Counted from the first letter of the stretch, positions 2,314-52,385 are shown. The stretch is DNA of 64,000 nucleotides from Pseudomonadota bacterium (GCA_020161145.1 JAIUPQ010000009.1:37781-101780), one strand, 5' to 3'. Made by a program: numbers and translations. The notes: generated by a model from the sequence alone, not told the origin.

Positions 2314-2473
2314 GCGGCTGTTGGCTGGCCGCAACGTTCAAGGGTTTCCCGTAGGAAATTCTTCCGCAACGCTCGGACACAATCGTCCAGTGCCCTAAGC
2401 GGGCGCCATGGCCGTCACATTCGTTCACAAGTGGTGTGGGGGCTGTTTCGCTGGTTCATCAGTTGGAGAGATC

Positions 2474-4969: not shown

Positions 4970-4994
4970 TTCGTCCTCCACCGTAAAACAAAAT

Positions 4995-5016
4995 GGGCCC
5001 TTCGGGGCCCTTTTTT
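4995..5016. terminator. Rho-independent terminator between convergent genes (bidirectional-looking)
   Basis: GGGCCC (4995-5000), loop TTCG, GGGCCC (5005-5010), then T6 (5011-5016), preceded by an A-rich run. It lies between the TonB-dependent receptor stop (4969) and the minus-strand methyltransferase stop (5015). Confidence 0.7.
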
Positions 5017-5980: not shown

Positions 5981-6519
5981 ATCGAGGTGTCGAACGCGCT
6001 GCTCATCAGCGGCATGTTGACGCCGAAGTTGGGGTTGAGTCCCGCTTTGGCGCTGGCCTTGCTGATGGGCTTGGTCTGGGCCACTTCAATGGTGTGCTCC
6101 CAGGCGTCGTCCTGGTTGGGGGCGACGGCGAAGGAGTAAAAGCAGCGGAACGCCACGCGGCGCTCGGCCCAGAAGTCGGCGGCTTCGCGGAAGGTGTCCA
6201 GCAACTGCTCACGGAACTCGCGGTCGAACTTGGCGTTGTCGGGAATCAGCTCCAGCACCACGACGAAGCCGGTCTGAGCCCCGCTCTTGTTGACCGAATC
6301 GGTGATGCAGTCATAGAGCGCATCCAGGTTCTTGCCGAAGTGCGCCGGGAACATGAACGACGCGGCGATGGCGTCCAGAACTTCTTGCTTGTTCTGGGCC
6401 TCGGCCAGGTTGGCGTACAGAAAGTGCTGGCCGGCCTCTTGCGCGGCGCGCATCAAATCGTCCACCCGGTAGGCGCGGATGGCCTGCACGATGTTGGGGC
6501 GGATGGTTTGCAGCTGCAT
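5962..6519 (-). CDS. barstar-family ribonuclease inhibitor with a C-terminal extension
   Basis: From the ATG at 6519: MQLQTIRP...NKQEVLDAIAASFMFPAHFGKNLDALYDCITD...VVVLE...FREAADFWAERRVAFRCFYSF matches the barstar pattern. It lies directly downstream of a barnase-type RNase. The ORF-track start at 6639 is judged too long. Confidence 0.75.
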   Translation of the reverse strand: MQLQTIRPNIVQAIRAYRVDDLMRAAQEAGQHFLYANLAEAQNKQEVLDAIAASFMFPAHFGKNLDALYDCITDSVNKSGAQTGFVVVLELIPDNAKFDREFREQLLDTFREAADFWAERRVAFRCFYSFAVAPNQDDAWEHTIEVAQTKPISKASAKAGLNPNFGVNMPLMSSAFDTSMWLSAA

Positions 6520-7162: not shown

Positions 7163-9457
7163 TCAGCGCCCCGCGTTGGCGTCGGCCACGGTGAGGGCGG
7201 TCATGTTGACGATGCGTCGCACGGTTGCCGACGGGGTCAGGATGTGCACTGGCTGCGCCGCGCCCAGCAGGATGGGGCCAACGGCGATGCCGCCGCCAGC
7301 CGCTGTTTTCAGCAGGTTGTAGCTGATGTTGGCGGCATCCATGCTGGGAAAGACCAACAGGTTGGCCTCGCCCTGCAGGGTGCTGCGCGGCATGATTTCC
7401 TGGCGCAGCCGCGGGTCCAGCGCGACGTCGCCATGCATTTCGCCGTCGATCTCCAGCCACGGCGCGGCGGCCTGCACCAGGGGCAGCACCTCGCGCATGC
7501 GGGCGGCGCCCGGGTGGCGACTGGAGCCGAAGTTGGAATGCGACAGCAGCGCGGCCTTGGGCTGGATGCCCAGGCGGCGCATTTCCTCAGCGGCCAGCAC
7601 AGTGATCTCGGCCAACTGCGCAGGGCTGGGTTCGTGGTTGACGTGGGTGTCGACCAGAAACACCTGCCGCCCCGGCAGGATGAGGCAATTCATGCAGGCA
7701 TAGGTGCCCACACCGCGGCGGCGGCCAATGACGTTGTCCACATACTCCAGGTGGGCGCCGACGAAGCCCCAGGTGCCGCAGATCAGGCCATCCACCTGGC
7801 GGTCGCGCAGCAACATGCAGCCGATCAGCGTCAGGCGCCGCCGCATCTCGATCTTGGCGAACTGCGCGGTCACGCCCTGACGGTCGGTCAGACGGTGGTA
7901 CTCCTGCCAGTACTGGCGGTAGCGCGGGTCGTCGTCGATGTTGACCAACTCCACGTCCTGCCCCGGCGTCAGGCGCAGCCCCAACTGCCGGATGCGGGCC
8001 TCGATGATGCTGGTGCGCCCGATCAGCACGGGCGTGGCCAGGCCTTCGTCAACGGCAATCTGCGCCGCCCGCAGCACGCGCCTGTCTTCCCCTTCGGCGT
8101 AGGCGATGCGCTTGCCCTTGGCCCGCTTGGCCATGGCGTAGATGGGCTTCATCACCGTGCCGGACGCGTAGACGAAGGTCTGCAGCTTGTCGCGGTAGGC
8201 CGCAAGATCCTCAATGGGCCGCTGGGCCACCCCGCTGGCGCGCGCCGCCTCCACCACCGCCGGCGCGATCTGCATCATCAACCGGGGGTCAAACGGCTTG
8301 GGAATCAGGTACTCGGGCCCAAACGAGAGCGTGGCGCCCATGTAGGCGCTGGCCACCACATCGCTTTGCTCGGCGCGTGCCAACTCGGCAATGGCCCGCA
8401 CGGCCGCAATCTCCATCGCATCGGTGATGGTGGTGGCGCCGCAATCCAGGGCGCCTCGAAAGATGTACGGAAAACACAGGACGTTGTTGACCTGATTCGG
8501 GTAGTCGGTGCGGCCGGTGGCGATCACCGCATCGTCCCGCACGGCCTTGACCTCTTCGGGCAGGATTTCGGGCGTGGGGTTGGCCAGCGCAAAAATCAGC
8601 GGCCGCGTCGCCATGGTGGCCACCATGTCGGGTTTGAGCACGCCGCCTGCCGAAAGGCCCAGAAAAATGTCGGCCTCCGCAATCACCTCAGCCAGCGTGC
8701 GTGCGTCGGTGGCCTGTGCGAACTCGGCCTTGTCGGGGTCCATCAACTCGGCGCGGCCCTGGTAGACCACGCCCGCCAGATCGGTCACCCAGATGTTCTG
8801 GCGCGGCAGCCCCAGCTTGACCAGCAGATTCAGGCAGGCCAGCGCCGCCGCGCCCGCCCCCGAGGCCACCAGCTTGACCTCCTCGATGCGCTTGCCCACC
8901 ACCTCCAGGCCGTTGAGCAGCGCCGCGCCCACCACGATGGCCGTCCCGTGCTGGTCGTCGTGGAACACCGGGATCGACAGCCGCTCGCGCAGCTTGCGCT
9001 CAACGTAGAAGCAATCGGGTGCCTTGATGTCTTCAAGGTTGATGCCGCCAAACGTCGGCTCCAGCGCCGCAATGATGTCCACCAGTTTGTCGGGGTCGTG
9101 CTCGCGCACTTCCAGATCGAACACGTCGATGCCGGCGAACTTCTTGAACAACACCCCCTTGCCTTCCATCACCGGCTTGGAGGCCAGCGGCCCGATGTCG
9201 CCCAGGCCCAGCACGGCGGTGCCGTTGGTGACCACGGCCACCAGGTTGCCGCGCGCGGTGTAGCGAAAGGCGTTGGCCGGATCGGCCACGATCTCTTCGC
9301 AGGCCGCTGCCACGCCAGGTGAATAGGCCAGCGCCAGATCGCGCTGGTTGGTCAACTGCTTGGTGGCCGTGACGGCCACCTTGCCCGGCGTCGGAAACTC
9401 GTGGTACTCGAGTGCCGCCTGGCGCAGCTCGGCTTGTTTTTCGGCAGAGGTCAGCAT
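7163..9457 (-). CDS. maeB: NADP-dependent malic enzyme (malic enzyme plus PTA-like domain)
   Basis: 764 aa. [39 protein letters not shown] and ...[11 protein letters not shown] are malic-enzyme motifs, and a phosphate-acetyltransferase-like domain follows. Confidence 0.95.
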
Positions 9458-34125: not shown

Positions 34126-34776
34126 TTACGCCGGGTGGCGGCTCAGCGCCAGGAATGGGGCCGGATCCCGGATGCGCACGCTGGCGTACCCCAGTTCGAC
34201 GAGACCCTCGGCCTCCCAGGCCTTGAGCTGCCGGTTGACGCGCTGGCGGGACACGCCCAGTTGGGCCGCCAAGGCCTCTTGCGGCAGCCGCAGCGGCTCG
34301 GCCGTCTGCGCCTGCGCCAACAGCCGGGCCGCCAGCCGGGCGGACAGGGGCCGCAGCGAGGCGTCCTCGATCCAGGCCAGCGCCTGGCGGTAGCGGTGGC
34401 AGACCAGCCGGGTGACCGCCAGCAGCGCCTGGGCGTCGTGGCCCACCAGGCGCCAGAACGCAGGCGCCGACAGCACCGCGACCTCGGCCGCTGCCAACGC
34501 CTCGGCGCGAAACGCCCGCGACACCCCATCCAGCAGCGGCACCTCGCCAAACCACTGGCCCTGGCCCAAGACGGCGGCAAGCAGCTGGCGGCCATCGGCG
34601 GCGTAAATCGACACCTGCACCCGCCCCGCCAACACACCGAACATGGCCTGCGGCATCGAGCCCAGGCCGAAGAGTTCTTCGCCGGCCACCAGACGCCGAC
34701 GCGAGGACGCGGCCACAAAGCGCGCGGCCAGTGACGGCGGCAGGCCACCCGCAGCGGTCAGGTCAGATCGGGTCAT
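34126..34776 (-). CDS. Crp/Fnr-family transcriptional regulator
   Basis: ATG at 34776. It has a cNMP-binding-like fold (GQWFGEVPLLDG) and a C-terminal HTH (PQEALAAQLGVSRQRVNRQLKAWEAEGLV). There is no N-terminal Cys cluster, so it is not FNR proper. Confidence 0.8.
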   Translation of the reverse strand: MTRSDLTAAGGLPPSLAARFVAASSRRRLVAGEELFGLGSMPQAMFGVLAGRVQVSIYAADGRQLLAAVLGQGQWFGEVPLLDGVSRAFRAEALAAAEVAVLSAPAFWRLVGHDAQALLAVTRLVCHRYRQALAWIEDASLRPLSARLAARLLAQAQTAEPLRLPQEALAAQLGVSRQRVNRQLKAWEAEGLVELGYASVRIRDPAPFLALSRHPA

Positions 34777-34857
34777 GTGCAGATTGTCCAAAAGTGACAG
34801 TTTCGCAGGGCGGTCGTCGCCACCATGAGCGCTCCTTGACTTGGTCCATCCATCGCC

Positions 34858-35547
34858 ATGTACGTCGGTCACTTTGCCATCGGCCTCGCGCTCAAAGCCC
34901 GGTTTCCCAAGACCCCTACGCTGCCGCTGCTGCTGGGTGTCGGGTTTCTGGACATCCTGGACGGTCTGTTCATTGTGTTGGGCTGGAACCTGGTCACGCC
35001 CAACCTGAACGCCGGCCCCTACCTGTTCTTCGACCTGACCTTCATCGACTGGGACCACTCGCTGGCGGCGGCGTTGCTGTGGTCGCTGGTCTGGGGCGCG
35101 CTGTTCATCAGGGACAAGCGGGGCGCCCTGCTGGCTTTCGTCGCAGCCTTCTCGCACATCGTGGCCGACTGGCCCCTGCACAACCACGATCTGGCGCTAT
35201 TCCCCTATGCCGACACGCACCTTGGCCTTGGGGGCTGGGGCAGGCTGGGCACGTTGTCGTGGGTGCTTGAAGGGCTGTTCGCGGCGGTGCTTGCCGCCTA
35301 CGCCGCCAGGCGGGCGGCGCAGCAGGGGCAGCGCTGGATCTGGCCCTGCGTGCTGCTGCTGGTGCTGTTCGCCAACCTTTCGCCCTGGCTGTCGCCCATG
35401 AAACTGGTGGCCACCTGGGGAGAGCCCGCCGCGCATCTGACGCATGGGGTGCTCGTGACCTTGGGTTTCCTGCTCCCGGGTCTGATGCTGACGGTGCTCA
35501 TCGACCGCGCCGCGCGCGCCCCGGCCCCGGCACGCGCTCAGGGCTGA
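34858..35547 (+). CDS. hypothetical polytopic inner-membrane protein
   Basis: About 7 hydrophobic segments with conserved-looking His/Asp residues (HFAIG, DILDG, HIVADWPLH). The family is uncertain. It is divergent from the Crp-family gene. Confidence 0.5.
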   Translation: MYVGHFAIGLALKARFPKTPTLPLLLGVGFLDILDGLFIVLGWNLVTPNLNAGPYLFFDLTFIDWDHSLAAALLWSLVWGALFIRDKRGALLAFVAAFSHIVADWPLHNHDLALFPYADTHLGLGGWGRLGTLSWVLEGLFAAVLAAYAARRAAQQGQRWIWPCVLLLVLFANLSPWLSPMKLVATWGEPAAHLTHGVLVTLGFLLPGLMLTVLIDRAARAPAPARAQG

Positions 35548-36905
35548 CGCAGGCCGTGGCGCTCCAGCATCCGGTAGGCCGTGCGCTCGGAAACGCCCAA
35601 GACCTCGGCCACCAGGCGGCGGTTGCCGCCATGGCGCTCCAGCAGCAAGGTCAGGTAGAGCCGCTCGATGTCGTCCAACGTGGGCTCATGGCCTTGCCAC
35701 AGCGTCGTCAGCGCGGCCGCCATGGGGTGGGCCGACGGCGGGCTGGTCGCGGGCGGCGCCAGCACCGGCAGGTGGCACGGCTCGATCCGCGGGCTGGCGC
35801 GGGCCAGCAGCACGGCGCGCTCGATCACGTTGCGCAGCTCGCGCACATTGCCAGGCCAGTCGTAGGCCAGCAGGCTGCGCATGGCCTCGGGCGTCACGGT
35901 GTGCGGCACGGGGCGACGGCTGGCGCGGGCAATGAAGTGATCAACCAGCAGCGGGACGTCTTCGGGGCGCTGGCGCAAGGGCGGCACCGGGATGGTGAAG
36001 GCCGACAGCCGGTAGTAAAGATCGGCGCGAAAGCCGCCCTCCTTGACGGCGGTCGGCAGATCGCGGTTGGTGGCGGCCACCACGCGCACATCGGCGCGCA
36101 GATCGGTGGTGGCGCCCACGCGGCGAAACCGGCCCGTCTCCAGCACGCGCAGCAGCTTGGCCTGTAGTGCCGGGCCGATGTCGCCGATCTCGTCCAGAAA
36201 CAGCGTGCCACCCGCCGCCGCCTCGATCAGGCCGGGTTTGCGCCGGTCGGCGCCGGTGAAGGCGCCGCGCTCGTGGCCGAACAGCTCGCTCTCGAACAGC
36301 GTCTCTTGCAGCGTGGTGCAGTCCACCGCCACAAACGGTTCGGCATGGCGTGCGCTGGCCTTGTGCACGGCGCTGGCCACCAGTTCCTTGCCCACGCCGC
36401 TGTCGCCCGTGACCAGCACCGTCATCGGCGTATCGGCAACGGCGTCGATCAGCTCGCGCACCTGACCCATGGCGGGGCTCTCGCCCAGCAGGTCGGGGGT
36501 GCGGCGGGCGCTGCTGCGGGCCTCGCCGACGGCGTGGGCGGCACGCAACCGCCCGCCCACCAGCGCGCGGCGGATGACCAGCTCCAGCTCATCGAGGTTG
36601 ACCGGTTTGACCAGGTAGTCGGCCGCGCCCAGCCGCATGGCCTGCACGGCGTGGTCGATGGAGCCGTAGGCGGTCAACATGACGGTGGGCCGGTCGGCGG
36701 CGAGTTCGGCCAACGGCCCCAGGTCCTGCGAGTCGGGCAGGTTCAAGTCCAGCAGCACCAGGTCGGGGGCGTGGCTGTCGAGCTTGGCGCGGGCCTCGGC
36801 CCAGGTGTAGGCCCCGGCCATCTCGTAGCCGGCCTGGCGCAGCGCGCGCTGAAGCATGTGGTTGAGCACCACGTCGTCCTCGACCACCAGAATGCTGGCG
36901 CTCAT
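35538..36905 (-). CDS. sigma-54-dependent response regulator (NtrC family: REC - AAA+ - HTH)
   Basis: REC domain (ILVVEDD...[11 protein letters not shown]), AAA+ domain with Walker A (GDSGVGKE), the sigma-54 contact loop GAFTGA, and a C-terminal Fis-type HTH ([17 protein letters not shown]). Confidence 0.92.
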
Positions 36906-38788
36906 GACCCGTCGGCGCGGGCGGCATCCGCGTCGGGCAGGGTGACGGTGAAGCGGCTGCCTTGCCCCGGCGTGCTGGTCACCGCGATGTGGCCGCCGCG
37001 GCCCTCGACCAGGGATTTGCAGATGGCCAGCCCCATGCCCGTGCCGCGCAGGCCGTCGGCGCGGCGGCTGTAGAACGGCAGGAAGATCAGGGCCATCTGC
37101 TCGGGGTCGATGCCGCAGCCGCTGTCCTGCACGGCCAGCTGCAGCGTGGTGTCGTCGGCGCGGCGGACGTCGATGGCCAGCGTGCCGCCCCCGCGCATGG
37201 CGTGCAACGCGTTGTGCACCAGATTGAGCAGCACCTGGCGCAGCTCGCCCTCGTCGGCCAGCACGCGCCGATCCGGCGCGGCCTGCACCCGCAGCGCCAC
37301 GCCGGCCTGGCGAATCTCTTCGCCCAGCAAGGCGGTCACATCGTCGATGGCGGCGCGCACGCTCACCGGCTGCGCCGGCTGGGCCGACGGCTGCGACAGG
37401 CGCAGCAGGCGTTGGGTGATGTCAACGCAGCGATCGATCTGCGCATCGACCAGGTGCAGGTATTCGGCCAGCTCGGTCGCCGGCATGGCGCCGCTTTGCA
37501 GGCCGCGCAGGGCCGATTGCAGCGCCAGGCGGATCGAGGCCAGCGGGTTGTGGATCTCGTGCGCCACGCCGTTGGCCAGCAGGCCCACGGCCGCCAGGCG
37601 CTGCTCTTGCGAGAAGCGCACCTGCTCGGCCAGCGGCCGGATGATTTCCACCACCTGCATGCTCCCGTCGGGCGCACGCAGCGGTGCGGCATGGATGTCC
37701 ACGTCCACGCGGCTGCCATCGGCGCGGGTGAAGGCCATCACCGTGCGGGTGGGGACGCCGCTGGCTTCGCAGGTGCGCAGCGGGCAGTGCACCAGCGTCT
37801 GCGGACAGGGCTCGTCCAGGGCGCGGCTGATGCGGTGGCAGGGCTGGTTCTGGATGGCCGCCAGCGGCTGGCCCATCAACCGCGCATAGGCGGTGTTGGC
37901 GGTGACGATGCGGTGGTCGGCACCCAGCAGCAGCATGGGGTCGGGCGCGGCGTCCAGCAGCGACTGCAGGAACGCGCGCTGGGCAGCCAGTGCGTCCATC
38001 TGGCCGTGCAGCTGTCTGGCCATGCGATCCACGCCCTGGCCGAGCTGGGCCAGCTCGTCGCGGCCGGTCAGGCCCGAGCGGGCGGCCAGGTCGCCGCCGG
38101 CTATGCGCCGGACTTGCTCGGCCAGCCGGGCCACCGGCCGCAGCACATCGCGCTGCAGCGCCCAGACCATGCCCAAGGCCAGCGCCACCAGCGCGGTCAG
38201 CGCGGCCGGCAGCAGCCATAGGCTGGCCCGTTCAATGGCCTCTCGCTCGGCGGCCATGGGCGCGAAGTCCAGCACCAGTACGCCGTTGATCGGCCGCGCG
38301 GCCACGCTGCCGTGGCAGCCCTGGCAGCGCGCCTGGTTGCGCACCGGGTAGGCCACGCGCAGGGCCCGCGTGGCGCCCTCCTGCTGCCAGCTCAGCGCGG
38401 GGGGTGAGAGCGGGCCGCAATGGGTGCCCAGACACAGGCCGGCAAGCGCGCCCGTTTCGGTCTGGCCCAGGCGCCGGGTGTCCGAGGCAAAGCGCACCTC
38501 GCCGGCCGGATCGAGCAGGGCCGCGCCGCTCATGCCGTTCATGCCGCCGACCTGGTCCAGCAGCTGCGCCAGACCCTCCAGGTCGCGCCGCAGCATGGCG
38601 TGGTGCAGGCTGGCTTCGAAGAGCCCGGCCAGGCGCAGCGATGCGCGCTCGTGCTCGGCGCGCATCGCGCGCTGGCCCACCCAGGCCCACAGCGACAGCA
38701 GCAGCACCACGGCCGCCGCAAACGCCAACAGCAGGCGTGGGGCGATGCGGCGGATCAAGGTGGTGGCCATGAACGCTGACCCTAACAC
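36902..38788 (-). CDS. sensor histidine kinase with a periplasmic CXXCH (haem c) domain, HAMP, a Cys-rich PAS domain, HisKA and HATPase
   Basis: TM1 ([18 protein letters not shown]), a periplasmic domain containing CQGCH (DNA 38312-38326), TM2, HAMP, a PAS domain with [25 protein letters not shown], an H-box ([13 protein letters not shown]), and N and G boxes. The stop overlaps the response-regulator start. An alternative start (MATTL) lies at 38770. Confidence 0.9.
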
Positions 38789-38816
38789 CGGCCGGCGTGC
38801 GCCGCCTTGAACCCGG

Positions 38817-39500
38817 TCACGCGGCCGGGCGGTGCAGGGCCTGCACCGCGTGCAGCGTCAACATGGCCAGCGCGGCATAGAGCAGGGTGCCCGCGCGGCG
38901 GTGCACGCGCTCGGCAAACCGGGGCAGCCAGCGCAGCAGATGCTCGGATGCGAACTGACGCGCCGCCTCGGGCTGACCCAGGGCCAGCGCGTGAGCGCAG
39001 AAGGCCAACTCATGGCTGAGGTGGTCGTCGGGCATGGTGCGCCAGTCGATCACCACCATGCCGTGCTGGCGGTAGATGGTGCGCACATCGAAGGTGGGGG
39101 CCTGCAGCATCAGGTTGTCGTCATCCAGCCAGACCGATTCGTATGGTGAGGCGCGCAGCGCATGGGTCAGGTAGATGCCGGCGTAGTCGGCGGCCAGTTC
39201 GGCGTCAAGCTGGCGTCGCTCGCTGGCCGGGGTGTGGCCCAGCGCCGTCAGTGCAGCGTCCATGGCGACGACGGCGTCGTCGGCGGCGGTGAGCAAGGCC
39301 AGCCCCTGCGGGAAGCCGTTGCGGTGCAATGCCAGCCAGGTGGCGCTGTCGCGTTCGGCGGCGTGCAGCCAGGCCAGCGCGCGCAGGTCTTGCGCCGCCA
39401 GCTGCTCGGCGGGCGTGGCGGCACGCGCCCGGCGCGCAAGCGGCATGGCGACGGGGGCCACCGTGGGGGCGGCGTTCATGGGGTGGCCCGGCGCATTCAT
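38817..39500 (-). CDS. TorD/DmsD-family redox-enzyme maturation chaperone
   Basis: ATG at 39500 overlaps the stop of the FeS subunit (ATGA). ...LAADYAGIYL...SPYESVWLD...PDDHLSHELAFCAHL is TorD-like. It occupies the usual position after the reductase subunits. Confidence 0.8.
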   Translation of the reverse strand: MNAPGHPMNAAPTVAPVAMPLARRARAATPAEQLAAQDLRALAWLHAAERDSATWLALHRNGFPQGLALLTAADDAVVAMDAALTALGHTPASERRQLDAELAADYAGIYLTHALRASPYESVWLDDDNLMLQAPTFDVRTIYRQHGMVVIDWRTMPDDHLSHELAFCAHALALGQPEAARQFASEHLLRWLPRFAERVHRRAGTLLYAALAMLTLHAVQALHRPAA

Positions 39501-40207
39501 TCGACCCGCCCCTTGGGATGGACGACGAAGACGATGGACGGGTGGGTGAGCTCGGGGTCGGCCAGGTCTTTGACGCGGCCGGCCACCTGATCGTGTGGCC
39601 CCACCGCCAGGGTCGCGTGGGTGCCGGCGCGCAACTGATCGATGGGGCCGATGTCCAGCACGCGCATCATGCAGGCCTGCACGCAGTACGGCTTGCGGCC
39701 GGCCTCCAGCTCGTCGATGCACATATTGCATTTCTTGACCAGGTTGTCGCTGGGGTCGTACTGCGGCGCGCCGTAAGGGCAGGCCGCTTCGCAGCGGCGG
39801 CAGCCGATGCACAGCGTGGAGTCGATGTCCACCACGCCGTTGTCGGCCCGCTTCCAGATGGCGCCCGTGGGGCAGGTGGGCAGGCAGGCGGGCTCGGCGC
39901 AGTGGTTGCACGCCATGTTGACCTTGTACGCCCAGACTTCAGGAAAGCTGCCGCCTTCGTGGTACATGACGCGCCGAAAGCGCGGGCCGGGAGCCAGGCC
40001 GTTCTTGTCCTTGCAGGCGATCTCGCAGGCGCGGCAGCCGATGCAGTCCACGTTGTTGTGCACGAAGCCGAACTGCTGGGCCGGTTTGACGGGCTCGTAG
40101 GTCTGGGCGTCGCGCCGCGCCTGGGCTTCGGCCACCTTGGCCTTGGCGGCCGGCTTGAGCTTGTTGATGACGGGCTTGGTGGGGTTTGATCTGGGCTGCT
40201 GGCTCAT
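39497..40207 (-). CDS. DmsB-type 4x[4Fe-4S] electron-transfer subunit
   Basis: Four ferredoxin Cys groups: CIGCRACEIAC, CNHCAEPACLPTCP, CIGCRRCEAACP and CNMC...CVQAC. A Lys/Ala-rich N-terminal extension of about 45 aa precedes the first cluster. Confidence 0.92.
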   Translation of the reverse strand: MSQQPRSNPTKPVINKLKPAAKAKVAEAQARRDAQTYEPVKPAQQFGFVHNNVDCIGCRACEIACKDKNGLAPGPRFRRVMYHEGGSFPEVWAYKVNMACNHCAEPACLPTCPTGAIWKRADNGVVDIDSTLCIGCRRCEAACPYGAPQYDPSDNLVKKCNMCIDELEAGRKPYCVQACMMRVLDIGPIDQLRAGTHATLAVGPHDQVAGRVKDLADPELTHPSIVFVVHPKGRVE

Positions 40208-40210
40208 CGC

Positions 40211-42817
40211 TCAATCTCCTCTGCGGAACACCGACGAGCGGGCGGTGGCCAATTGATCCCAGCCGGGCCGGTGCGCGAGCGCGGTCTTGCGGATGCCCAC
40301 CAAAATGGTGTTGTAGGCAAACGCGCCGGCGGGGCTGGGCGCGTCCAGCGTCAGAAAGTCGGGGTTGCCTGCGCGGTCTATGCCTTGGGCGTCCCGGTCC
40401 ATCCAGGCCCCCTCATGAAGCACGGCCACCCCGGGCAGTACCCGCTCGGTGACGTACACGGGCACGATGCAGGCGCCGCGATCGTTGTAGACCTCCACCG
40501 TGTCGCCCGTGATCAGGCCCAGCCGCCGGGCGTCGCCAGCGTTGATCGTCACCTCCTGGCTGCAGGTCTCGCGCAGCACGCCGACGTTGTGATAGATCGA
40601 ATGCGTGCGCTCGCGGGGGTGGGGCGTGATCAGGTGGAAGGGGTACTGCCGGGTCAGCGGATGGTTGAGCGACTCGAACGGCTCGATCCACTTGGGTATG
40701 GCCGGAATGGGCTGGCCGTATTGCGTGCGCGTCCAGTCGCGGATGTTGGCCAGCTGCGTGGACATGATTTCGATCTTGCCCGAGGGGGTCTGGAACGGTC
40801 GCCCTCGTTCGATCTGGTCCTGGAAGGCCACGTGCGGGCGGGCGAGCTTGAACTTGTAGATGCCGTGCTGCTTGAACTGTGCCCAGCTCATCTGCACGTG
40901 CTGGTGTTCCTGCACGCGGTGCCACCAGTCGGTGAGGTAGGCCTCGTCCACCGCGTCGGGGTCGTTGAAATAGGTGCGGCTTGCGCGCGGGTTGTAGCGC
41001 TGGCCAAAGCCGGCCAGGTTCTGCGGATCGAGCTGTTCGAGCCGATAGGCCAGTTCGGTGAAGACCTGGAAGTCGGTCTTGCTCTCGCCCAGCGGCTCGA
41101 TCACCTTGGGGCGGTGGATGTAGTAGTGGCCTTTGTACCAGGGCAGGGCCACGTCATGGCGCTCGAAGTGGGTGCAGATGGGCAGCAGCACATCGGCCCA
41201 GATGCCGCTGGGGGTGATGGTGGCGTCCATGCACACCACCAGCTCCAGCCGCTTGATGGCCGCGATCTCCTTGTTGATGTTGGTCAGCTGGTTGAACCAG
41301 TCGCTGCCCTGCCAGAAGATGCCTTTGATGTTGGGGATGACGCCGTCGAGCTGATCCTGCCGCGGCCACAGGCCGATCTCCTCGCGCCGGACGTCGGGGT
41401 AGTTCAGCACGCAGTGCGCCCAGCGGTCGCTCTTGATGGAGGCGAACCAGACGTTGGCGAACTCGTCGTACGGGTAGGCCACGGCCTCGGCGTGCCAGGC
41501 CTTGCCCACGCCCTCGGCGCAGCCACCCAGCTTGCCGATGTTGCCCGTCATCGCCTGCAGGGCGGCGGCCATGCGGTTGTACTGCTCGCCGTAGGCGGCG
41601 CGGCCTGGCGCCCAGCTGGCCTTGAGTGCGGCCGGCTTGGTCTGGGCGTACAGCTGGGCCAGCTTGCGGATGTCGGCCGCCCTGACGCCGCAGATGGGTT
41701 CGGCCCATTCGGGCGTCTTGGGCGTCTTGTCGTATTTGCCGAGGATGTAGTCCTTGAAGTTCTCGCGCCCGGCGTACTGCGGGGGCAGTGTGCCGGCGTC
41801 CATGCCCAGCGTGAAGCGGTTGATGAAGTCCTGGTCTTGCAGGCCCTGCGTGAAGATGTGATGGGCCATGGCCGCCATCATGGCGGCGTCGGTTCCGGGC
41901 TTGATGGGAATCCACCAGGCGTCGTAGACGGCGGCGGAATCCGTGTATTGCGGATCGACCAGCACGAACTTGCAGCCGCGCTGCTTGGCCATGCGCATGT
42001 AGTAGAACGTGTTGCCGCCGTGGAAGGTGTAGGCCGGATTCCAGCCCCACATGATGATGAGCTGGGAGTGGGCAAACGCATCGTCCTCGTTGCCGTCCTC
42101 GATGGTGCCGAAGGTCATGCGGCTGGAGAAGGTCGTGCCCTGGTAGCTGGGCACGCTCCACGAGCTGGTGCGGCAGCCGAACATGCCCATGAAGCGGCCC
42201 AGCAGGCCTTCGATCTGGTCGCTTTTGTGCAGCACGCCGTAGCTGGCGCCGGCATAGCTTTGATCGACCAGCGCCGTCGGGCCATAGGTCTGCTTGAGCT
42301 GCGTCATCTTGCGGGCGACGTAGTCCAGTGCTTCGTCCCAGCTGGCACGGCGGAACTTGCCCGCACCGCGCTCGCCGACGCGGATCATCGGGTACAGCAG
42401 CCGCTCGGGCGAGTACACGCGCGAGCGGTACGAGCGCCCGCGCAGGCAGGCGCGCAACTGGGGCTCCTCGAACGTGTCCTTGCCGAAGGCGCCGCCCTCC
42501 TGGTAGCGGCCGTCGTCGGTCGAGAGTCGCACGATGACGTCGCCCTTCTTGTGCGCCACCAGCACGTGGCGCGAGCCGCAGTTGTGGGCGCACGAGGTGA
42601 CCACCGTGGTCAGTTGGTCGTCGCTGCTGTAGGGCTCGTAGGCAAACGCCGTGGCCTTCTTCGGAAAGCCCGCCAGGGCCACCAGGCCCGTGGCGCCGAT
42701 GAGGGTGAGAAAGTCGCGCCGGCTGGTGGGCAGTGCGGCCTGGGCCACCGTGAAGGCGGCCAGCGAGGCGCCCGGCAGGGGGGTGGCGGGCGGCGTGGTC
42801 AGGGTGCCCGTGGTCAT
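40211..42817 (-). CDS. Tat-exported molybdopterin oxidoreductase catalytic subunit, DmsA/YnfE-like (DMSO reductase family)
   Basis: Twin-arginine signal (TSRRDFLTLIGATG). By hand alignment to my memory of E. coli DmsA, the long block ACLRGRSYRSRVYSPERLLYPMIRVGERGAGKFRRASWDEALDYV is closely similar. The N-terminal cluster motif reads CAHNCGSRH. The start overlaps the cytochrome stop. Confidence 0.93.
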   Translation of the reverse strand: MTTGTLTTPPATPLPGASLAAFTVAQAALPTSRRDFLTLIGATGLVALAGFPKKATAFAYEPYSSDDQLTTVVTSCAHNCGSRHVLVAHKKGDVIVRLSTDDGRYQEGGAFGKDTFEEPQLRACLRGRSYRSRVYSPERLLYPMIRVGERGAGKFRRASWDEALDYVARKMTQLKQTYGPTALVDQSYAGASYGVLHKSDQIEGLLGRFMGMFGCRTSSWSVPSYQGTTFSSRMTFGTIEDGNEDDAFAHSQLIIMWGWNPAYTFHGGNTFYYMRMAKQRGCKFVLVDPQYTDSAAVYDAWWIPIKPGTDAAMMAAMAHHIFTQGLQDQDFINRFTLGMDAGTLPPQYAGRENFKDYILGKYDKTPKTPEWAEPICGVRAADIRKLAQLYAQTKPAALKASWAPGRAAYGEQYNRMAAALQAMTGNIGKLGGCAEGVGKAWHAEAVAYPYDEFANVWFASIKSDRWAHCVLNYPDVRREEIGLWPRQDQLDGVIPNIKGIFWQGSDWFNQLTNINKEIAAIKRLELVVCMDATITPSGIWADVLLPICTHFERHDVALPWYKGHYYIHRPKVIEPLGESKTDFQVFTELAYRLEQLDPQNLAGFGQRYNPRASRTYFNDPDAVDEAYLTDWWHRVQEHQHVQMSWAQFKQHGIYKFKLARPHVAFQDQIERGRPFQTPSGKIEIMSTQLANIRDWTRTQYGQPIPAIPKWIEPFESLNHPLTRQYPFHLITPHPRERTHSIYHNVGVLRETCSQEVTINAGDARRLGLITGDTVEVYNDRGACIVPVYVTERVLPGVAVLHEGAWMDRDAQGIDRAGNPDFLTLDAPSPAGAFAYNTILVGIRKTALAHRPGWDQLATARSSVFRRGD

Positions 42818-43647
42818 TGCGGGGCTCCTTGCGAGGTGGGGTTCAGGGCGTCGCTCAGGAAGCGCAGTTCGGAGGCAGTCGGCCGACCTTTGGCCCAGTC
42901 GGGCACTTCATCGGCCATGCCTGGCCAGGCGTGGCGGGCGTAGGGGTAGCTGGTTCGGTACCAGGCGCGGCCACCGTGGCAGCCGAAGCACACGTCGCCC
43001 CCCGTGCCGGGCTGGGCGCCGGCTGCCTCGATGGCCTTGGCATTGAGGTAGTTGACCGCGTGGCGCGTGGTGCGAATGGCCGCATGGCACAGCAGGCAGT
43101 TGTTCTGGAACGCGGCCTTGCTCTCGCGCCAGGGGCTGGGCAGGCCCATGATGGCGTGATTCATCTGGCCATGGCATTTGAGGCAGGTCTCGGTGGGCAC
43201 CACCGTCTTGCGCAGCGTGAAGCCGCCCAGGCGCTGCGAGGTGGCCGATGACAGCGGGGTTTCGTCGCGCGGATCGTTGCCCTGGTGGCAGGTGGTGCAG
43301 CGCATGGTCATCAATTGCCTGGCCATGGGGGTCTGCAGGTGGCGACGATGGAAGGTGTCCTGCGCCCCCTCGTAGGTGCTGGTCTCCTGGTACCAGGCCT
43401 TGGCGTCGGCCGCTTTGACGCCGGCCGGTGACTGCGGCCGCACCGAGGGTTTGAGCACCTCGGCGTGACAGGCCAGGCACTGCGCATCGGTGGCGCGCTC
43501 GATGGCCGGTTGGAAATGGATGGGGTCGTAGCGCGCGCGCTGGTAGTCGGGCTCGGTCGTCTGCGCGCTGCCCGTGAGCAGCACCAGCGCCAAGGCCGCC
43601 AGCCAGTGCCCTGCGCCGTGACGGCGCGAGTGCGGAGAGGCATTCAT
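42814..43647 (-). CDS. pentahaem c-type cytochrome (membrane-anchored or periplasmic)
   Basis: Five CXXCH motifs (CLACH, CTTCH, CLKCH, CLLCH, CFGCH) follow an N-terminal signal or anchor (HWLAALALVLLTGSAQ). The ATG at 43647 is preferred. An upstream in-frame GTG at 43710 cannot be excluded, and neither start has a clear SD. Confidence 0.85.
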   Translation of the reverse strand: MNASPHSRRHGAGHWLAALALVLLTGSAQTTEPDYQRARYDPIHFQPAIERATDAQCLACHAEVLKPSVRPQSPAGVKAADAKAWYQETSTYEGAQDTFHRRHLQTPMARQLMTMRCTTCHQGNDPRDETPLSSATSQRLGGFTLRKTVVPTETCLKCHGQMNHAIMGLPSPWRESKAAFQNNCLLCHAAIRTTRHAVNYLNAKAIEAAGAQPGTGGDVCFGCHGGRAWYRTSYPYARHAWPGMADEVPDWAKGRPTASELRFLSDALNPTSQGAPQ

Positions 43648-43659
43648 GGATCGGTCGCG

Positions 43660-43694
43660 AAAAAAAGGCGCCAGGCAGGCGAGCCCGCCCGGCG
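43660..43694 (-). terminator. intrinsic-terminator-like hairpin plus U7 inside the operon (possible attenuator or 3'-stabiliser)
   Basis: On the minus-strand RNA, an 11-bp stem pairs CGCCGGGCGGG (43694-43684) with CCUGCCUGGCG (43679-43669), comprising 9 Watson-Crick and 2 G-U pairs. The loop is CUCG, then CC, then U7 (43666-43660). It lies 47 nt after the lipoprotein stop and 12 nt before the cytochrome ATG. Confidence 0.5.
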
Positions 43695-43740
43695 TCAAGA
43701 CCGGCCCCACCGCACGGGCGCAGCGGGGCGAGGGAGGCGA

Positions 43741-44409
43741 TTACTTCTTGGCGGGGGCGGGCGGCCTGGCAGCCTGGCTCCACTGGGTGCAGACCCAGCC
43801 GTCGCCAGCCATGCCGGACATGCCGGACATGCCGGACATGCCACCCATGCCGGACATCCCGCCCATGCCGCCCATGCCGGACATCCCACCCATGCCCGAC
43901 ATGCCCGACATGCCGCGCTGTCCGCCATGGCTCCATTGGGTGCAGGCCCAGCCATCGTTGCCGGCCATGCCCGACATGCCGGACATACCTCCCATGCCGG
44001 ACATACCTCCCATACCGGACATGCCTCCCATACCGGACATGCCTCCCATACCGGACATGCCTCCCATACCGGACATACCGCCCATGCCGGACATACCGCC
44101 CATACCGGACATACCGCCCATACCGGACATGCCACCCATACCGGACATGCCGCCCATACCGGACATGCCGCTCATACCAGACATGCCGCTCATACCAGAC
44201 ATGCCGCTCATACCAGACATGCCGCCCATGCCGGACATACCGCCCATACCAGACATGCCACCCATGCCCGACATACCAGTCATACCGGACATCCCATCCA
44301 TACCCGACATGCCCATCTGTCCTTGTGGATACGGCGGTGTGGCGCAGCCGGCGAGCAGGGCTGCTGCAGCGATGGCGGCCAGCGCGAAGGGGGTGCGAGT
44401 TGATTTCAT
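43741..44409 (-). CDS. methionine-rich (Met-X-Gly)n repeat lipoprotein
   Basis: A GAGGAGAG RBS lies 5-6 nt upstream of the ATG at 44409. It has a lipoprotein signal (MKSTRTPFALAAIAAAALLAGC). Then come 40 Met-X-Gly units, NDGWACTQWSHGGQRG, 12 more units, and DGWVCTQWSQAARPPAPAKK. The hand count sums to the 222-aa ORF length. Confidence 0.8.
   Translation of the reverse strand: MKSTRTPFALAAIAAAALLAGCATPPYPQGQMGMSGMDGMSGMTGMSGMGGMSGMGGMSGMGGMSGMSGMSGMSGMSGMSGMSGMGGMSGMGGMSGMGGMSGMGGMSGMGGMSGMGGMSGMGGMSGMGGMSGMGGMSGMGGMSGMSGMAGNDGWACTQWSHGGQRGMSGMSGMGGMSGMGGMGGMSGMGGMSGMSGMSGMAGDGWVCTQWSQAARPPAPAKK
43804..44316 (-). repeat. in-frame 9/18-nt tandem repeat arrays encoding the Met-X-Gly blocks
   Basis: Block 1 spans 43960-44316 and block 2 spans 43804-43911. 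The arrays include three exact tandem 18-mers ACATGCCTCCCATACCGG (44019-44072) and three exact tandem 18-mers ACATGCCGCTCATACCAG (44163-44216), both given on the plus strand. Confidence 0.9.
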
Positions 44410-44515
44410 GGTGCTCTCCTCTGGAGTGTGAATAAACGCAATTGAAGTGAAGGGGCGTGGCGCCGGCCACCTCGTCGCCCCGCCTGGCGGGTGTCGGTGG
44501 CCACCGCAGGGGGCT

Positions 44516-44824
44516 TCACGGATCGCCCAGAGGCCGATGCCAGCCTCGCAAGTCGTAGGGCCCGCTCATGCCAGGATGGAAAAACGGGGCCCACCAGGCG
44601 CCTTGCTCGGCCAGGCGCTCGACCGTGGCGGGCCAGGGCGGCACCACGCCGTGCAGGCGCTGGGCCTTGAGTTCGGGTCCGACGGGCGCCTGGGTGACCG
44701 CAGGCGCATGGGCGGGCCGCCGATCGGGCACCAGGCCGGCGACCCCGGCCTGGGCCGCAGCCGCCTGCAGCAGCAGCAAGGCGAGCCAGGTCGGACGCAG
44801 CAAGGGGGTGGCAGGCATGGGCAT
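44516..44824 (-). CDS. hypothetical small secreted protein (first gene after the sigma-54 promoter)
   Basis: ATG at 44824 lies 8 nt after a GAGGAG RBS. It has a signal peptide (MPMPATPLLRPTWLALLLLQAAAAQA). The mature part is about 76 aa and ends in WWAPFFHPGMSGPYDLRGWHRPLGDP. No family is recognised. The longer ORF-track start (44893) would swallow the promoter. Confidence 0.55.
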   Translation of the reverse strand: MPMPATPLLRPTWLALLLLQAAAAQAGVAGLVPDRRPAHAPAVTQAPVGPELKAQRLHGVVPPWPATVERLAEQGAWWAPFFHPGMSGPYDLRGWHRPLGDP

Positions 44825-44850
44825 CGCGTGGGTCTCCTCACCCTTGTCTT

Positions 44851-44866
44851 TGCATCCGTCATGCCA
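44851..44866 (-). promoter_or_regulatory. sigma-54 (-24/-12) promoter
   Basis: The minus strand reads TGGCATGACGGATGCA, against the consensus TGGCACG-N4-TTGCW. It has the GG-N10-GC spacing and lies about 25 nt upstream of the small-protein ATG. A sigma-54 activator is encoded in the same locus. Confidence 0.65.
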
Positions 44867-44971: not shown

Positions 44972-45700
44972 ATGACGGGGATGAGCACGCCCCACCCCAT
45001 CTGGCGCGACCCGGCCTTCGTCCAAGGCGCACGCGACATGGCGCAGCCGGCGCTGGGCATCGGGGCCTGGGGTCTGGTGACGGGGGTGGCCATGGTCAAG
45101 GCCGGGTTCTCGCTGCCGCTGGCGGTGCTGGTGTCGTTGACGGTGTTTGCCGGCAGCGCCCAACTGGCCACCACCCCATTGATTGCGGCCGGTGCGCCCC
45201 TGTGGGTGATCTGGGCCACCGCCACCTGCGTCAACCTGCGCTTCGTCATCTTTTCGGCCGGCTGGCGGCCGTACTTCGAGCACCTGCCGCTGGGCCGGCG
45301 GCTGGGCATCGGCTATCTGGCGGGCGACCTCAACTACGTGCTGTTCACCCGCCGCTACCCCAGCCCCCGGCCCGAGCCGGGGCAGCAGGCCTATTTCTGG
45401 GGCGGCGCGGTGACCAACTGGGTGGCCTGGCAGGCGTTCTCGCTGGCCGGCATTGCGCTGGCGGCGCAGATCCCTACGGCCTGGGGCCTGGGCTTTGCCG
45501 GCACGCTGGCGCTGCTGGGCCTGGCCGGCTCGCTGCTGGTGGACCGCGCCACCTGGGTGGCGGGTGGCGTGGCGGCGCTGGCCGCGGTGGCGGCGTTCGC
45601 GCTGCCGTTCAGGCTCAACATCGTGGTGGCCATCGCCGCCGCCGTGGCGGTGGGCGTGGTGCTGGACCACTGGGGGCGCACCCCGAAGGCGCCCACATGA
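44972..45700 (+). CDS. azlC: AzlC-family branched-chain amino-acid exporter subunit
   Basis: GARDMAQPALGIGAWGLVTGVAMVKAGFSL...TVFAGSAQLA...CVNLRFVIFSA is AzlC-like. The start is at 44972, or at the second ATG at 44981. Confidence 0.85.
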   Translation: MTGMSTPHPIWRDPAFVQGARDMAQPALGIGAWGLVTGVAMVKAGFSLPLAVLVSLTVFAGSAQLATTPLIAAGAPLWVIWATATCVNLRFVIFSAGWRPYFEHLPLGRRLGIGYLAGDLNYVLFTRRYPSPRPEPGQQAYFWGGAVTNWVAWQAFSLAGIALAAQIPTAWGLGFAGTLALLGLAGSLLVDRATWVAGGVAALAAVAAFALPFRLNIVVAIAAAVAVGVVLDHWGRTPKAPT

Positions 45701-46038
45701 CCACGGGCATCACGCTCTACACCCTGGCGGCCGTGGTGGGGCTGACCGCCATCTCGGTGGTCACGCGCGCCTTCTTCATGCTGCCCAGGCGGCCACTGCC
45801 CATTCCGGCCTGGCTGCGTGAGGCCTTGCGCTATGCCCCGCTGGCCGCCCTGGTGGCCGTGGTGGCGCCCGATGTGCTGTTGCGCGATGGGGCCTTGCTG
45901 GCCACCTGGCGCGACGCGGCGCTGTGGGCCACGGTGGCCGGTGCGGCGTGGTACGTTTGGCGCCGAACCATTCTGGGCACCATCGTCTGCGGCACGGCCG
46001 TGCTGCTGACGCTGCGCCTCGTCCTGCATTTTCAATAG
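45697..46038 (+). CDS. azlD: AzlD-family small membrane protein
   Basis: ATG at 45697 overlaps the azlC stop (ATGA). It is about 113 aa with 3-4 TM helices (LAAVVGLTAISVVTRAFFMLP...). Confidence 0.8.
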   Translation: MTTGITLYTLAAVVGLTAISVVTRAFFMLPRRPLPIPAWLREALRYAPLAALVAVVAPDVLLRDGALLATWRDAALWATVAGAAWYVWRRTILGTIVCGTAVLLTLRLVLHFQ

Positions 46039-51906: not shown

Positions 51907-52360
51907 GAAGCGAGCCAGACCGCCGCTGGCGCAAGGCCCGAAAGGGCGCGCTGGAGGAAGGTCCGGACTGCACAGGGCAGCGTAGCGGGTAACCCCCGTC
52001 CACCGCGAGGTGCGGATCAGAGCCACAGAGACGAGTCGGCCCGGGGTGCGCTCCAAGCTGGGTGGTCTACGAGGAGCCGGCGTCAGCCGGCATTGCCTTG
52101 GCGCAAGCCAAGGCCAGCCGCGCGAGCGGCTGCCGAGTAGCACCCGGCCTGGGGTCATCAAGGCCCCAGGCCGGGTGAAACGCGGCAATCTCTACGCGCA
52201 GCAACACCAAATAGGCACGCGATGATCTGGCCCGGAGAGCGTGCGGGTAGGTGGCACCGAGCCGTCCGGGTAACCGGCGGCCCAGATGAATGGCGGTCAC
52301 ACGCGCTTGGGCGCAAGTCCTGGCGCGCGCACAGAATCCGGCCTATCGGCTCGCTTCACT
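51907..52360 (+). ncRNA. rnpB: RNase P RNA, bacterial type A
   Basis: The P1 helix pairs GAAGCGAGCC (51907-51916) with GGCTCGCTTC (52348-52357). The universally conserved GGAGGAAGGTCCGGAC...CACAGGGCAG is present, as are the 3' conserved AGATGAATGGCGGTCACA and ACAGAATCCGGCCTATCGGC. These match the E. coli M1 RNA landmarks from memory. The ends are accurate to within a few nt. Confidence 0.9.
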
Positions 52361-52385
52361 TTTTCAACTCCATCACCCCGACCGC

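Follow-up and report, generated by a model that had tools for sequence, protein, structure and literature searches.

A recurrent DmsAB-type molybdoenzyme module joined to a (Gly-Met-X)n protein: a candidate periplasmic thioether/sulfoxide redox buffer

The locus and the described systems closest to it

In Azospira suillum PS, the methionine-rich scavenger MrpX is recycled by a molybdoenzyme, in what is known as the MrpX-YedY cycle (PMC4436054), and members of the DmsABC family reduce methionine sulfoxide (MetSO) and respond to hypochlorous acid (HOCl) (PMC12096835, PMC8340005). Reduction of both free and protein-bound MetSO has been described for DmsABC and DorA (PMC12096835, PMC7402097, PMC8340005), the DorA in question being that of Rhodobacter sphaeroides, which acts on the protein-bound form (PMC7402097). 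In this work, we analyzed an eight-gene run on the minus strand (44866-35538) of a 64,000-nucleotide stretch of DNA from a Pseudomonadota bacterium (GCA_020161145.1 JAIUPQ010000009.1:37781-101780), a stretch that is called the window throughout. New in this locus is the combination of a DmsAB-type enzyme lacking a membrane subunit with a pentahaem cytochrome and a probable docking protein, to which a (Gly-Met-X)n protein and a haem-c kinase/sigma-54 switch are added. In full-text literature searches, one of them made with the repeat sequence itself, neither the module nor GMSGM repeats nor this DmsA clade was found described, and the clade is not set apart in a phylogenetic survey of DmsA from 2025.

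Open reading frames (ORFs) were called mechanically, and the scans for terminators, FNR boxes and sigma-54 elements are pattern matches. An earlier, sequence-only reading of the window had listed eight same-strand genes with overlapping stop and start codons, and all eight were found as described. In transcription order, the features are as follows.

44851-44866, minus strand: sigma-54 (-24/-12) promoter-like element TGGCATGACGGATGCA, a pattern match about 25 nt 5' of the first start codon
44516-44824, minus strand: small secreted protein of 102 aa with a signal peptide, a core component
43741-44409, minus strand: (Gly-Met-X)n repeat protein of 222 aa with the lipobox LLAGC
43660-43694, minus strand: intrinsic-terminator-like hairpin between the Met-repeat and cytochrome genes, with an 11-bp stem containing 9 G-C pairs and followed by T7
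42814-43647, minus strand: periplasmic pentahaem cytochrome c with 5 CXXCH motifs, its stop overlapping the dmsA start (ATGA)
40211-42817, minus strand: DmsA-like catalytic subunit of 868 aa, predicted to be exported by twin-arginine translocation (Tat; motif SRRDFL) and to bind molybdenum-bis(pyranopterin guanine dinucleotide) (Mo-bisPGD), with PF00384 and PF01568
39497-40207, minus strand: DmsB-like subunit for four [4Fe-4S] clusters, with four Cys groups
38817-39500, minus strand: TorD/DmsD-family maturation chaperone (PF02613)
36902-38788, minus strand: sensor histidine kinase with a periplasmic CQGCH motif, starting at GTG 38788 or ATG 38770
35538-36905, minus strand: NtrC-type sigma-54 response regulator with REC, Sigma54_activat (containing GAFTGA) and HTH_8 domains, its start overlapping the kinase stop

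The start of the cytochrome gene was set at ATG 43647 and not at GTG 43710 because the terminator-like hairpin sits at 43660-43694.

Among described systems, MrpX-YedY1Z1 (MsrPQ) likewise pairs a Met-rich periplasmic protein bearing a signal peptide with a Tat-exported molybdoenzyme able to reduce sulfoxides, as an inducible unit in Rhodocyclaceae-type hosts. The parts, however, are different. The module enzyme belongs to the dimethyl sulfoxide (DMSO) reductase family (bis-PGD, Ser ligand, DmsB), whereas the partner of MrpX is YedY/MsrP of the sulfite oxidase family; its electrons would pass through the pentahaem cytochrome and the putative small docking protein, whereas MsrP is served by the membrane haem-b protein MsrQ; and its regulators are a haem-c kinase and a sigma-54 activator in place of the SigF/NrsF extracytoplasmic function pair that controls MrpX. 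The Met-rich proteins themselves also differ, as the module protein is built of (Gly-Met-X)n with 26% Met and 37% Gly, and MrpX contains 20% Met and 44% charged residues.

DmsABC of Escherichia coli and Haemophilus influenzae and YnfEFGH share with the module a Tat signal with PF00384 and PF01568, a Ser ligand to Mo, a four-cluster DmsB and a TorD/DmsD chaperone (PMC12096835, PMC8340005). In contrast to DmsABC, the module enzyme is 35% identical to E. coli DmsA, scores below the NCBIfam cutoff and has His in place of the third Cys of its FS0 motif, and no DmsC/NrfD anchor is present, a periplasmic pentahaem cytochrome and the small protein standing in its place. DorCAD and TorCAD offer a periplasmic S-/N-oxide reductase, a five-haem cytochrome, a TorD-family chaperone and two-component control. 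TorA and DorA are, however, monomeric and without an iron-sulfur (FeS) subunit, whereas a DmsB-like gene is present in 79/80 module loci; TorC and DorC are membrane-anchored NapC/NirT quinol dehydrogenases, a family that the module cytochrome matches only marginally; and TorS/TorR is of the OmpR type, the module regulator of the NtrC type. The perchlorate-reduction island (pcrABCD, cld, pcrPSR, sigF/nrsF, yedYZ, mrpX; PMC4623255) is likewise mobile and combines a cytochrome-c-fed periplasmic Mo reductase with a kinase/sigma-54 regulator and a Met-rich scavenger, but PcrA is a type II (Nar-like, Asp-ligated) enzyme, and the island's cld and YedYZ are absent from the module.

Two further likenesses concern single components. 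GSU0582 and GSU0935 of Geobacter (3B47, 3B42) are the best Protein Data Bank (PDB) profile matches of the kinase periplasmic domain, although the matches are weak (E = 0.03-0.06) and the Geobacter proteins are chemoreceptors whereas the module protein is a kinase. The thioether-only "Mets" motifs of Ctr1, CusB/CusF and CopA/PcoA share the MxxM spacing, and the same kind of segment was found in a CusB-like adaptor; unlike these proteins, the module repeats lack His/Asp co-ligands, and the module lacks copper genes and a metal sensor.

Recurrence, core and accessory genes, and expression signals

One genome per GTDB species was scanned, and at least 578 species carry a close relative of the DmsA-like protein, identities of 75-89% being recorded for such relatives. 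The best 80 of these at least 578 loci, whose DmsA-like proteins are 75-83% identical, were analyzed in detail, and the counts given here refer to this set. Their hosts are Betaproteobacteria (Comamonadaceae/Sphaerotilaceae, Zoogloea, Dechloromonas/Azonexus, Accumulibacter, Sulfuritalea and Methyloversatilis), Gammaproteobacteria (Competibacter and Sedimenticola) and Alphaproteobacteria (Hyphomicrobium, Xanthobacteraceae and Thermopetrobacter). When the ORFs of the 80 loci were searched with the eight window proteins, the cytochrome was found in 80/80, DmsB in 79/80, TorD in 71/80, the small protein in 65/80 (48 of the 49 loci with full flanks), the Met-repeat protein in 60/80, the regulator in 53/80 and the kinase in 52/80. 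The genes for the cytochrome, DmsB, TorD and the small protein sit side by side in nearly every case. Most cases of a missing gene coincide with contig ends, and in many contigs the break falls within the repeat gene, or the gene is masked. This bears out the expected co-occurrence of the DmsA clade with (GMX)n proteins, a pentahaem cytochrome, a CXXCH kinase and a sigma-54 regulator.

Because the set recurs over 80 related loci in three proteobacterial classes with its order permuted, the gene arrangement is far beyond chance. Comamonadaceae have the order small, Met, cytochrome, A, B, D, (ferredoxin), kinase, regulator, and many Rhodocyclaceae have kinase, regulator, Met, small, cytochrome, A, B, D. 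When all ORFs of the 80 loci were clustered against one another, no other family appeared in more than 8 loci, with the exception of a poly-ferredoxin of about 350 aa. The gene for it, an optional ninth member, is placed between torD and the kinase gene in 29/80 loci (examples are L003 13915-15060, L015 5183-6172, L047 14334-15476 and L089 11961-12950) and is absent from the window; its product looks cytoplasmic, carries several CxxCxxCxxxCP motifs and a C-terminal CPxC, and may be a NapF-like maturation factor. Genes for cld, a peroxidase, msrPQ, cop/cus or dmsC are not conserved near the module in the 80 loci, and no MsrP, MsrA, MsrB or copper gene lies within it. The module is also present on a conjugative plasmid of Rhodobacter xanthinilyticus (pEJ01), where the NCBI/RefSeq names of its genes are generic, and in one further locus it adjoins a relaxase gene. 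As it is plasmid-borne, relaxase-adjacent and without any other conserved neighbor, and as its genomic surroundings vary between lineages, we regard the module as a self-contained, mobile unit. The association also held in reverse: two divergent stand-alone Met-repeat proteins, retrieved by a search with the repeat protein, lie directly upstream of cytochrome-Mo-FeS genes, with a kinase and a regulator alongside.

Co-variation was counted in the 49 loci with full flanks. The Met-repeat gene, kinase/regulator and small protein occur together in 34 of these, and the small protein and enzyme occur without the Met-repeat gene and without the kinase/regulator in 11. In three loci the Met-repeat gene is accompanied by a regulator that is incomplete or went undetected, and a single locus (L068) has neither Met-repeat gene nor kinase/regulator, its small protein also being undetected; a kinase/regulator without a Met-repeat gene was found in 0/49. 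On a neighbor-joining tree of DmsA, loci that have neither Met-repeat gene nor kinase/regulator are scattered over at least five distinct positions, and these genes have therefore been gained or lost together repeatedly, with the caveat that the three are contiguous in some arrangements, so that a single deletion could take them all. The core of the system is thus the small protein, the pentahaem cytochrome, DmsAB and TorD, and the add-on is the Met-repeat protein with the haem-c kinase and the sigma-54 regulator. The sequence-only reading had treated all eight genes as one co-organized module; the recurrence of the set upholds this, but the Met-repeat gene and the kinase/regulator are accessory, and the core exists alone.

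The promoter follows the same division. A sigma-54 element had been proposed ahead of the first gene, and it is present at 44851-44866 and recurs, many related loci carrying comparable elements just 5' of their first gene; it is missing from loci without the kinase and regulator. When the whole 64-kb window was scanned with the pattern TGGCAY-N5-WTGCW, TGGCATGACGGATGCA was the sole match, against 0.65 matches expected by chance. A single match of this kind is by itself no better than chance, and it is the position of the element and its recurrence at the same site that speak for it. Inverted repeats were found 5' of the promoter in the window, and no enhancer-binding site is claimed for them. 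In loci without the two-component system (TCS), FNR/DNR-type boxes (TTGAY-N4-RTCAA, at most 1 mismatch) were found 5' of the small-protein gene in 4/12 cases, compared with 4/45 controls.

A second expression signal concerns the Met-repeat gene itself. A hairpin with a T-run follows its stop codon in 33/59 loci, whichever gene comes next, and follows the other seven genes in 0-21% of loci. The hairpin between the Met-repeat and cytochrome genes of the window is probably an attenuator. From its position after the Met-repeat gene, far more Met-repeat than enzyme transcript is predicted, and such an excess would match the expectation for a stoichiometric buffer served by a catalyst.

A neighboring gene was noted in one locus that has the core without Met-repeat gene or kinase: in Dechloromonas agitata (L038), a gene for a two-domain rhodanese (7947-8786) lies directly upstream of the small-protein gene. 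It was not accepted as a part of the module, nor were the other neighbors of this locus (EamA among them), as they are not conserved in other loci.

Properties of the components

Domain searches with the DmsA-like subunit gave 166 bits for PF00384 and 74 bits for PF01568, and the Tat motif is present in 78/80 orthologues. Its nearest subfamily is DmsA/YnfE, although the score against TIGR02166 (dmsA_ynfE) is 598.3 bits, below the cutoff of 777.7, and the equivalog models for DmsA, YnfE and YnfF give 414-456 bits against cutoffs of 1600-1675. In an alignment to the DMSO reductase of R. sphaeroides (1EU1), Ser224 of the query corresponds to the Mo ligand Ser147 (Ser176 in DmsA), Tyr114 of DorA has a conserved counterpart, and Gly stands in the place of Trp116. 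The FS0 motif has the form C-x3-C-x3-H...C (SC[AD]HNCGSRH...R[AG]CLRG), with His for the third Cys in 80/80 members, and PF04879 scores 16.6 bits, below its cutoff of 22.7. By these alignments the subunit is placed in the Ser-ligated S-/N-oxide reductase branch as a divergent DmsA/YnfE-type clade, in agreement with the DmsA-type assignment made before. The other two members of the enzyme unit also score below their family cutoffs, the DmsB-like subunit with 193.8 bits against TIGR02951 (cutoff 214.1) and the chaperone with 79.5 bits against NF003442 TorD (cutoff 132), the latter reaching 81 bits against PF02613. A conserved DmsC/NrfD-type, quinol-oxidizing membrane partner was not found within 10 kb in the 80 loci.

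Five haem motifs are present in 63/68 orthologues of the pentahaem cytochrome, whose N-terminus resembles a cleavable signal peptide. The protein has only weak matches to c7, NapC/NirT and NrfB families, and the PDB contains no sequence homologue of it. It was considered as a quinol dehydrogenase of the NapC/TorC type and not accepted as such, since the NapC/NirT score is marginal (26 bits against PF03264, cutoff 24.1, with no significant stretch) and real NapC similarity is lacking (BLASTP against a NapC-type protein, E = 0.04).

The small secreted protein is characterized by the motif AGLxPxxRPxxAP...QGxWYTPFxxPGMxGxYDxRGxH. It matches no Pfam or NCBIfam family, a PDB profile search found nothing real, and an AlphaFold2 model from a shallow alignment is uninformative, with a predicted local distance difference test (pLDDT) score of 54. 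A homologue search by word index gave 4 matches; an exhaustive HMMER search gave a family of 236 clusters, most of about 100-130 aa. Its fusions are more telling of its role. One joins the small protein to the pentahaem cytochrome, three consist of a membrane anchor, a c2/cy-like monohaem cytochrome and the small domain, and several have a transmembrane anchor and a linker before the small domain. One of the anchor-c2/cy-small fusions occupies the "small" position of a complete module, and the module cytochrome on the Rhodobacter plasmid itself consists of an anchor, a c2/cy-like domain and the pentahaem part. From this pattern, the small protein probably serves to dock the pentahaem cytochrome onto c2/cy-type cytochromes and so to couple the two. 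The fusions to c2/cy-like domains therefore suggest that the enzyme is wired to the cytochrome c pool and not to a quinol dehydrogenase of the DmsC or NapC type.

The kinase is composed of a transmembrane helix, a periplasmic, probably PAS-like haem-c (CXXCH) domain, a second transmembrane helix and a HAMP-PAS-HisKA-HATPase portion. The periplasmic CXXCH is present in 50/51 orthologues, and the domain is conserved at NAML-RD, GEVRFAS and N-x3-CxxCHG-x5-PxNG, with Met, Arg and Asp invariant. The top PDB matches of its profile are 3B47, 3B42 and 5B82 (Tll0287), which are weak (E = 0.03-0.17) but coherent, the match spanning the haem-binding segment strand-N-x3-CxxCH, and on this weak but coherent basis the domain appears to resemble the haem-c PAS sensors of Geobacter. 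Judging by the Geobacter structures, such a haem-c domain would be of a kind in which Met serves as a ligand or is competed with. The regulator co-varies with the kinase and with the Met-repeat gene, and the pair has the features of an NtrC-type sigma-54 system, namely REC, AAA+ with GAFTGA, HTH_8 and a -24/-12 element at the target.

The mature Met-repeat protein has 201 residues, among them 52 Met, 75 Gly and 32 Ser, and the spacing from Met to Met is exactly 3 residues in 49/52 intervals. In its GMXGM units X is S, G, Q, A or E and never His, with Ser or Gly in about 92%; the repeat is broken by two WxCTQW motifs, the C-terminus is KK, and at the DNA level the gene is an 18/36/54-nt tandem array. 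Matches to Pfam Collagen and to Scl adhesins were dismissed as an artefact of Gly at every third residue. The adjacent Met-rich ORFs in related loci encode genuine secreted proteins with 20-30% Met, with repeats of the type GMSGMEGQK in Rhodocyclaceae and GMSGMGG elsewhere, and GM[YRP]GM variants in other loci. The protein had been called a lipoprotein, and a lipobox is indeed present in the window copy, but most orthologues have a Sec signal in its place and are expected to be soluble.

W-x-C-T/V-x-W motifs, each with one Cys and usually two per protein, were observed in many (GMX)n proteins (in the window and in L027, L047, L063, L080, L089, P0121 and P0127). They are also present in P0308, a small-protein homologue without Met repeats. 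The motif may be a disulfide-linked or docking element.

Met-repeat segments are not confined to the module. Tails or linkers of the (GMX)n type were found outside it in P0129/P0139/P0182 (L081-L085), P0158, P0135, P0127, P0156, P0141 and P0166. The carriers include NapC-type cytochromes beside FccAB and SoxYZ in sulfur oxidizers, c2/cy-like dihaem cytochromes (one c2-like cytochrome also has a WxCxxW motif), CcoP, c551 and SoxX-like cytochromes, DsrE-like and OmpA-like proteins and a CusB-like adaptor of the resistance-nodulation-division (RND) type. From this range of carriers, periplasmic redox proteins seem to be widely decorated with (GMX)n, in a manner not described before. The NapC-(GMX)n fusions were considered as a further connection of Met repeats to S-oxide reductases and set aside, as their neighbors are FccAB and SoxYZ and no Mo enzyme is nearby.

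Readings of the function

Tentatively, and with somewhat less than even confidence, we read the complete module as a periplasmic thioether/sulfoxide redox buffer regenerated by an enzyme of the DMSO reductase family, analogous to MrpX-MsrP and assembled from different parts. An abundant secreted (Gly-Met-X)n protein would offer about 50 unhindered Met residues, which periplasmic oxidants would convert to MetSO, and the Tat-exported, Ser-ligated DmsAB-type molybdoenzyme, matured by TorD, would reduce the sulfoxides of the repeats back. Electrons would run from the c-type cytochrome pool to the pentahaem cytochrome, docked via the small protein, and from there through the four [4Fe-4S] clusters of DmsB to Mo-bisPGD. 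The haem-c PAS-like kinase would sense a redox or ligand state and act through its NtrC-type partner on the sigma-54 promoter, and the terminator-like hairpin would let the Met-repeat transcript greatly exceed those of the enzyme genes. The enzyme would take other substrates too, since the core also occurs alone. We infer thioether/sulfoxide chemistry because the enzyme falls in the Ser-ligated S-/N-oxide branch, the repeat protein is a flexible chain of exposed thioethers and the haem-c sensor would be of the kind noted above; the DmsAB-type enzyme is, moreover, the sole encoded enzyme that could recycle oxidized repeats.

If this reading is right, Met-redox cycling arose in the periplasm on at least two occasions, from molybdoenzymes that are not related (MsrP and the DmsAB clade), and is common in Proteobacteria of wastewater and denitrification, such as Dechloromonas, Zoogloea, Accumulibacter, Competibacter and Comamonadaceae. 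It would also give a function to a Mo-enzyme clade found in at least 578 species, to the small-protein family of 236 clusters, and to (Gly-Met-X)n proteins and cytochrome tails. Whatever its substrate, the module offers a compact system in which to study how DmsAB is wired to cytochromes without a membrane subunit, what signals a haem-c PAS kinase responds to, and which roles thioether repeats play.

Several observations weigh against the buffer. The core enzyme occurs without any Met-repeat gene in at least 11 of the 49 full loci, and the Met-repeat protein is therefore not its sole or obligatory substrate, which limits the earlier proposal that the Met-rich protein is what the enzyme acts upon. 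The FNR/DNR-type boxes suggest that the TCS-less core is an anaerobic reductase under FNR/DNR control with other substrates. Re-reduction fed by the cytochrome had been proposed at first; the fusions imply a partner of the c2/cy type, which would probably be of high potential. The DMSO/dimethyl sulfide (DMS) couple lies at about +160 mV and c2/cy cytochromes at about +300 mV, so that sulfoxide reduction from such a partner would run uphill; a partner of this potential would better fit a strong acceptor, such as an oxyanion, or the oxidative direction. Finally, the occurrence of (GMX)n away from the enzyme suggests a general role for the repeat, for example in Cu(I) binding or local antioxidant protection.

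These points lead to the first alternative, which we consider unlikely overall, though well worth weighing: the core would be a terminal reductase that works anaerobically, depends on cytochrome c and acts on a strongly oxidizing oxo-compound, be it a halogen oxyanion (chlorate, bromate, iodate), selenate or a small S-/N-oxide, and the Met-repeat protein would not be a substrate but a co-expressed sacrificial scavenger of the reactive products (chlorite/HOCl, HOBr, HOI), as MrpX is. The c2/cy-type partner implied by the fusions suits acceptors of high potential, FNR/DNR-like boxes occur in loci without kinase and regulator, and the core can dispense with the Met-repeat gene. Its hosts are mostly denitrifiers or relatives of (per)chlorate reducers (Dechloromonas, Azonexus, Zoogloea, Sedimenticola, Competibacter), the YnfE selenate-reductase model scores on a par with the DmsA model, DmsA-type enzymes of Shewanella reduce bromate and iodate (PMC9468665), and the perchlorate island unites a Mo reductase, a kinase/sigma-54 regulator and MrpX (PMC4623255, PMC4436054). 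The known oxyanion reductases Pcr, Clr and Ser are, however, Asp-ligated type II enzymes, whereas the DmsA-like enzyme is Ser-ligated and has the Tyr that favors S-oxides. Neither chlorite dismutase nor a peroxidase nor MsrP is conserved near the module in the 80 loci, about a quarter of the loci would be left without a scavenger, and an oxidized scavenger would still need a reductase, for which the DmsAB-type enzyme is the only candidate encoded.

The second alternative, that the (GMX)n protein is a periplasmic buffer or chaperone for Cu(I)/Ag(I), is improbable in our view. In Ctr1, CusB/CusF and CopA/PcoA, MxxM motifs bind Cu(I)/Ag(I), and Cu(I) dominates under anoxia. With Met at every third residue, the repeat forms continuous MxxM motifs, a thioether-only chain that would be useful under anoxia for cuproenzymes such as NosZ, NirK and cbb3, and the molybdoenzyme would keep the thioethers reduced or be unrelated. 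The same kind of segment is borne by the CusB-like RND adaptor and by CcoP, a cbb3 subunit; CusF damaged by Cu is repaired by MsrP in E. coli (PMC9302797), and a response to copper is on record for Mo-enzyme genes (PMC12096835). At the loci themselves, however, the signs of a copper system are missing: no cop, cus, pco or cue gene and no sensor of the CusS/CopS type was found within 10 kb in the 80 loci, the linked sensor is a putative haem-c PAS kinase, and His, Asp and Glu, which characterize the motifs of PcoE, SilE and CopA, are nearly absent from the repeats. The form of this alternative that had been offered before, a metal buffer that merely shares a promoter with the reductase, found no support in copper genes or a metal-type sensor at the locus, and a shared promoter alone explains poorly why the repeat gene is linked to one Mo-enzyme clade in three classes and in rearranged order.

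A bolder version of the preferred redox-buffer reading would make the repeat protein both buffer and signal. The haem c of the kinase would take a thioether axial ligand from reduced repeats and lose it on sulfoxide formation, so that the module would gauge the redox state of its own protein and bring it back, as a self-regulating buffer or a redox-switchable low-complexity material. We give this version little credence; were it true, such a device would be found widely among the bacteria of denitrification and wastewater and could service the (GMX)n tails of periplasmic cytochromes.

Least probable of all, and very unlikely in our view, the enzyme could run oxidatively as a thioether dehydrogenase, passing electrons from DMS, methionine or the Met-repeat protein to the pentahaem cytochrome and on to c2/cy cytochromes as DMS dehydrogenase does, with the repeat protein as redox-switchable material or electron reservoir: the module has no quinol-oxidizing membrane subunit, thermodynamics favors flow from a thioether to cytochrome c2 if the partner is c2/cy-like, and hosts include Hyphomicrobium, Rhodobacter and sulfur oxidizers, but DMS dehydrogenase as known belongs to type II, is Asp-ligated and has a haem b subunit, all characterized Ser-ligated DmsA/DorA/TorA/BisC enzymes are to our knowledge reductases in vivo, the FNR-like control in some loci better fits a terminal reductase, and oxidizing a dedicated protein has no obvious benefit.

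Beside the operon of the window lie further genes that were considered as parts of the system and rejected, as they are not conserved beside the module in other loci. Genes for an AzlC/AzlD-family exporter (44981-46038, plus strand) are divergent from the operon promoter region; the family is one whose members carry branched-chain amino acids and methionine out of the cell. A Crp/Fnr-family regulator gene (cNMP_binding and HTH_Crp_2; 34126-34833, minus strand) is found on the same strand about 700 bp downstream of the response-regulator gene, a position of some note given that TCS-less versions of the module carry FNR-like boxes. Elsewhere in the window, the region at about 2000-6000 has a G+C content of 53-57%, compared with about 70% in the remainder, gave no rRNA or tRNA match and may be horizontally acquired. 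A bacterial RNase P RNA of class A was recognized at 51907-52361 on the plus strand with 175 bits, the match being 455 nt long against a model of 367 positions.

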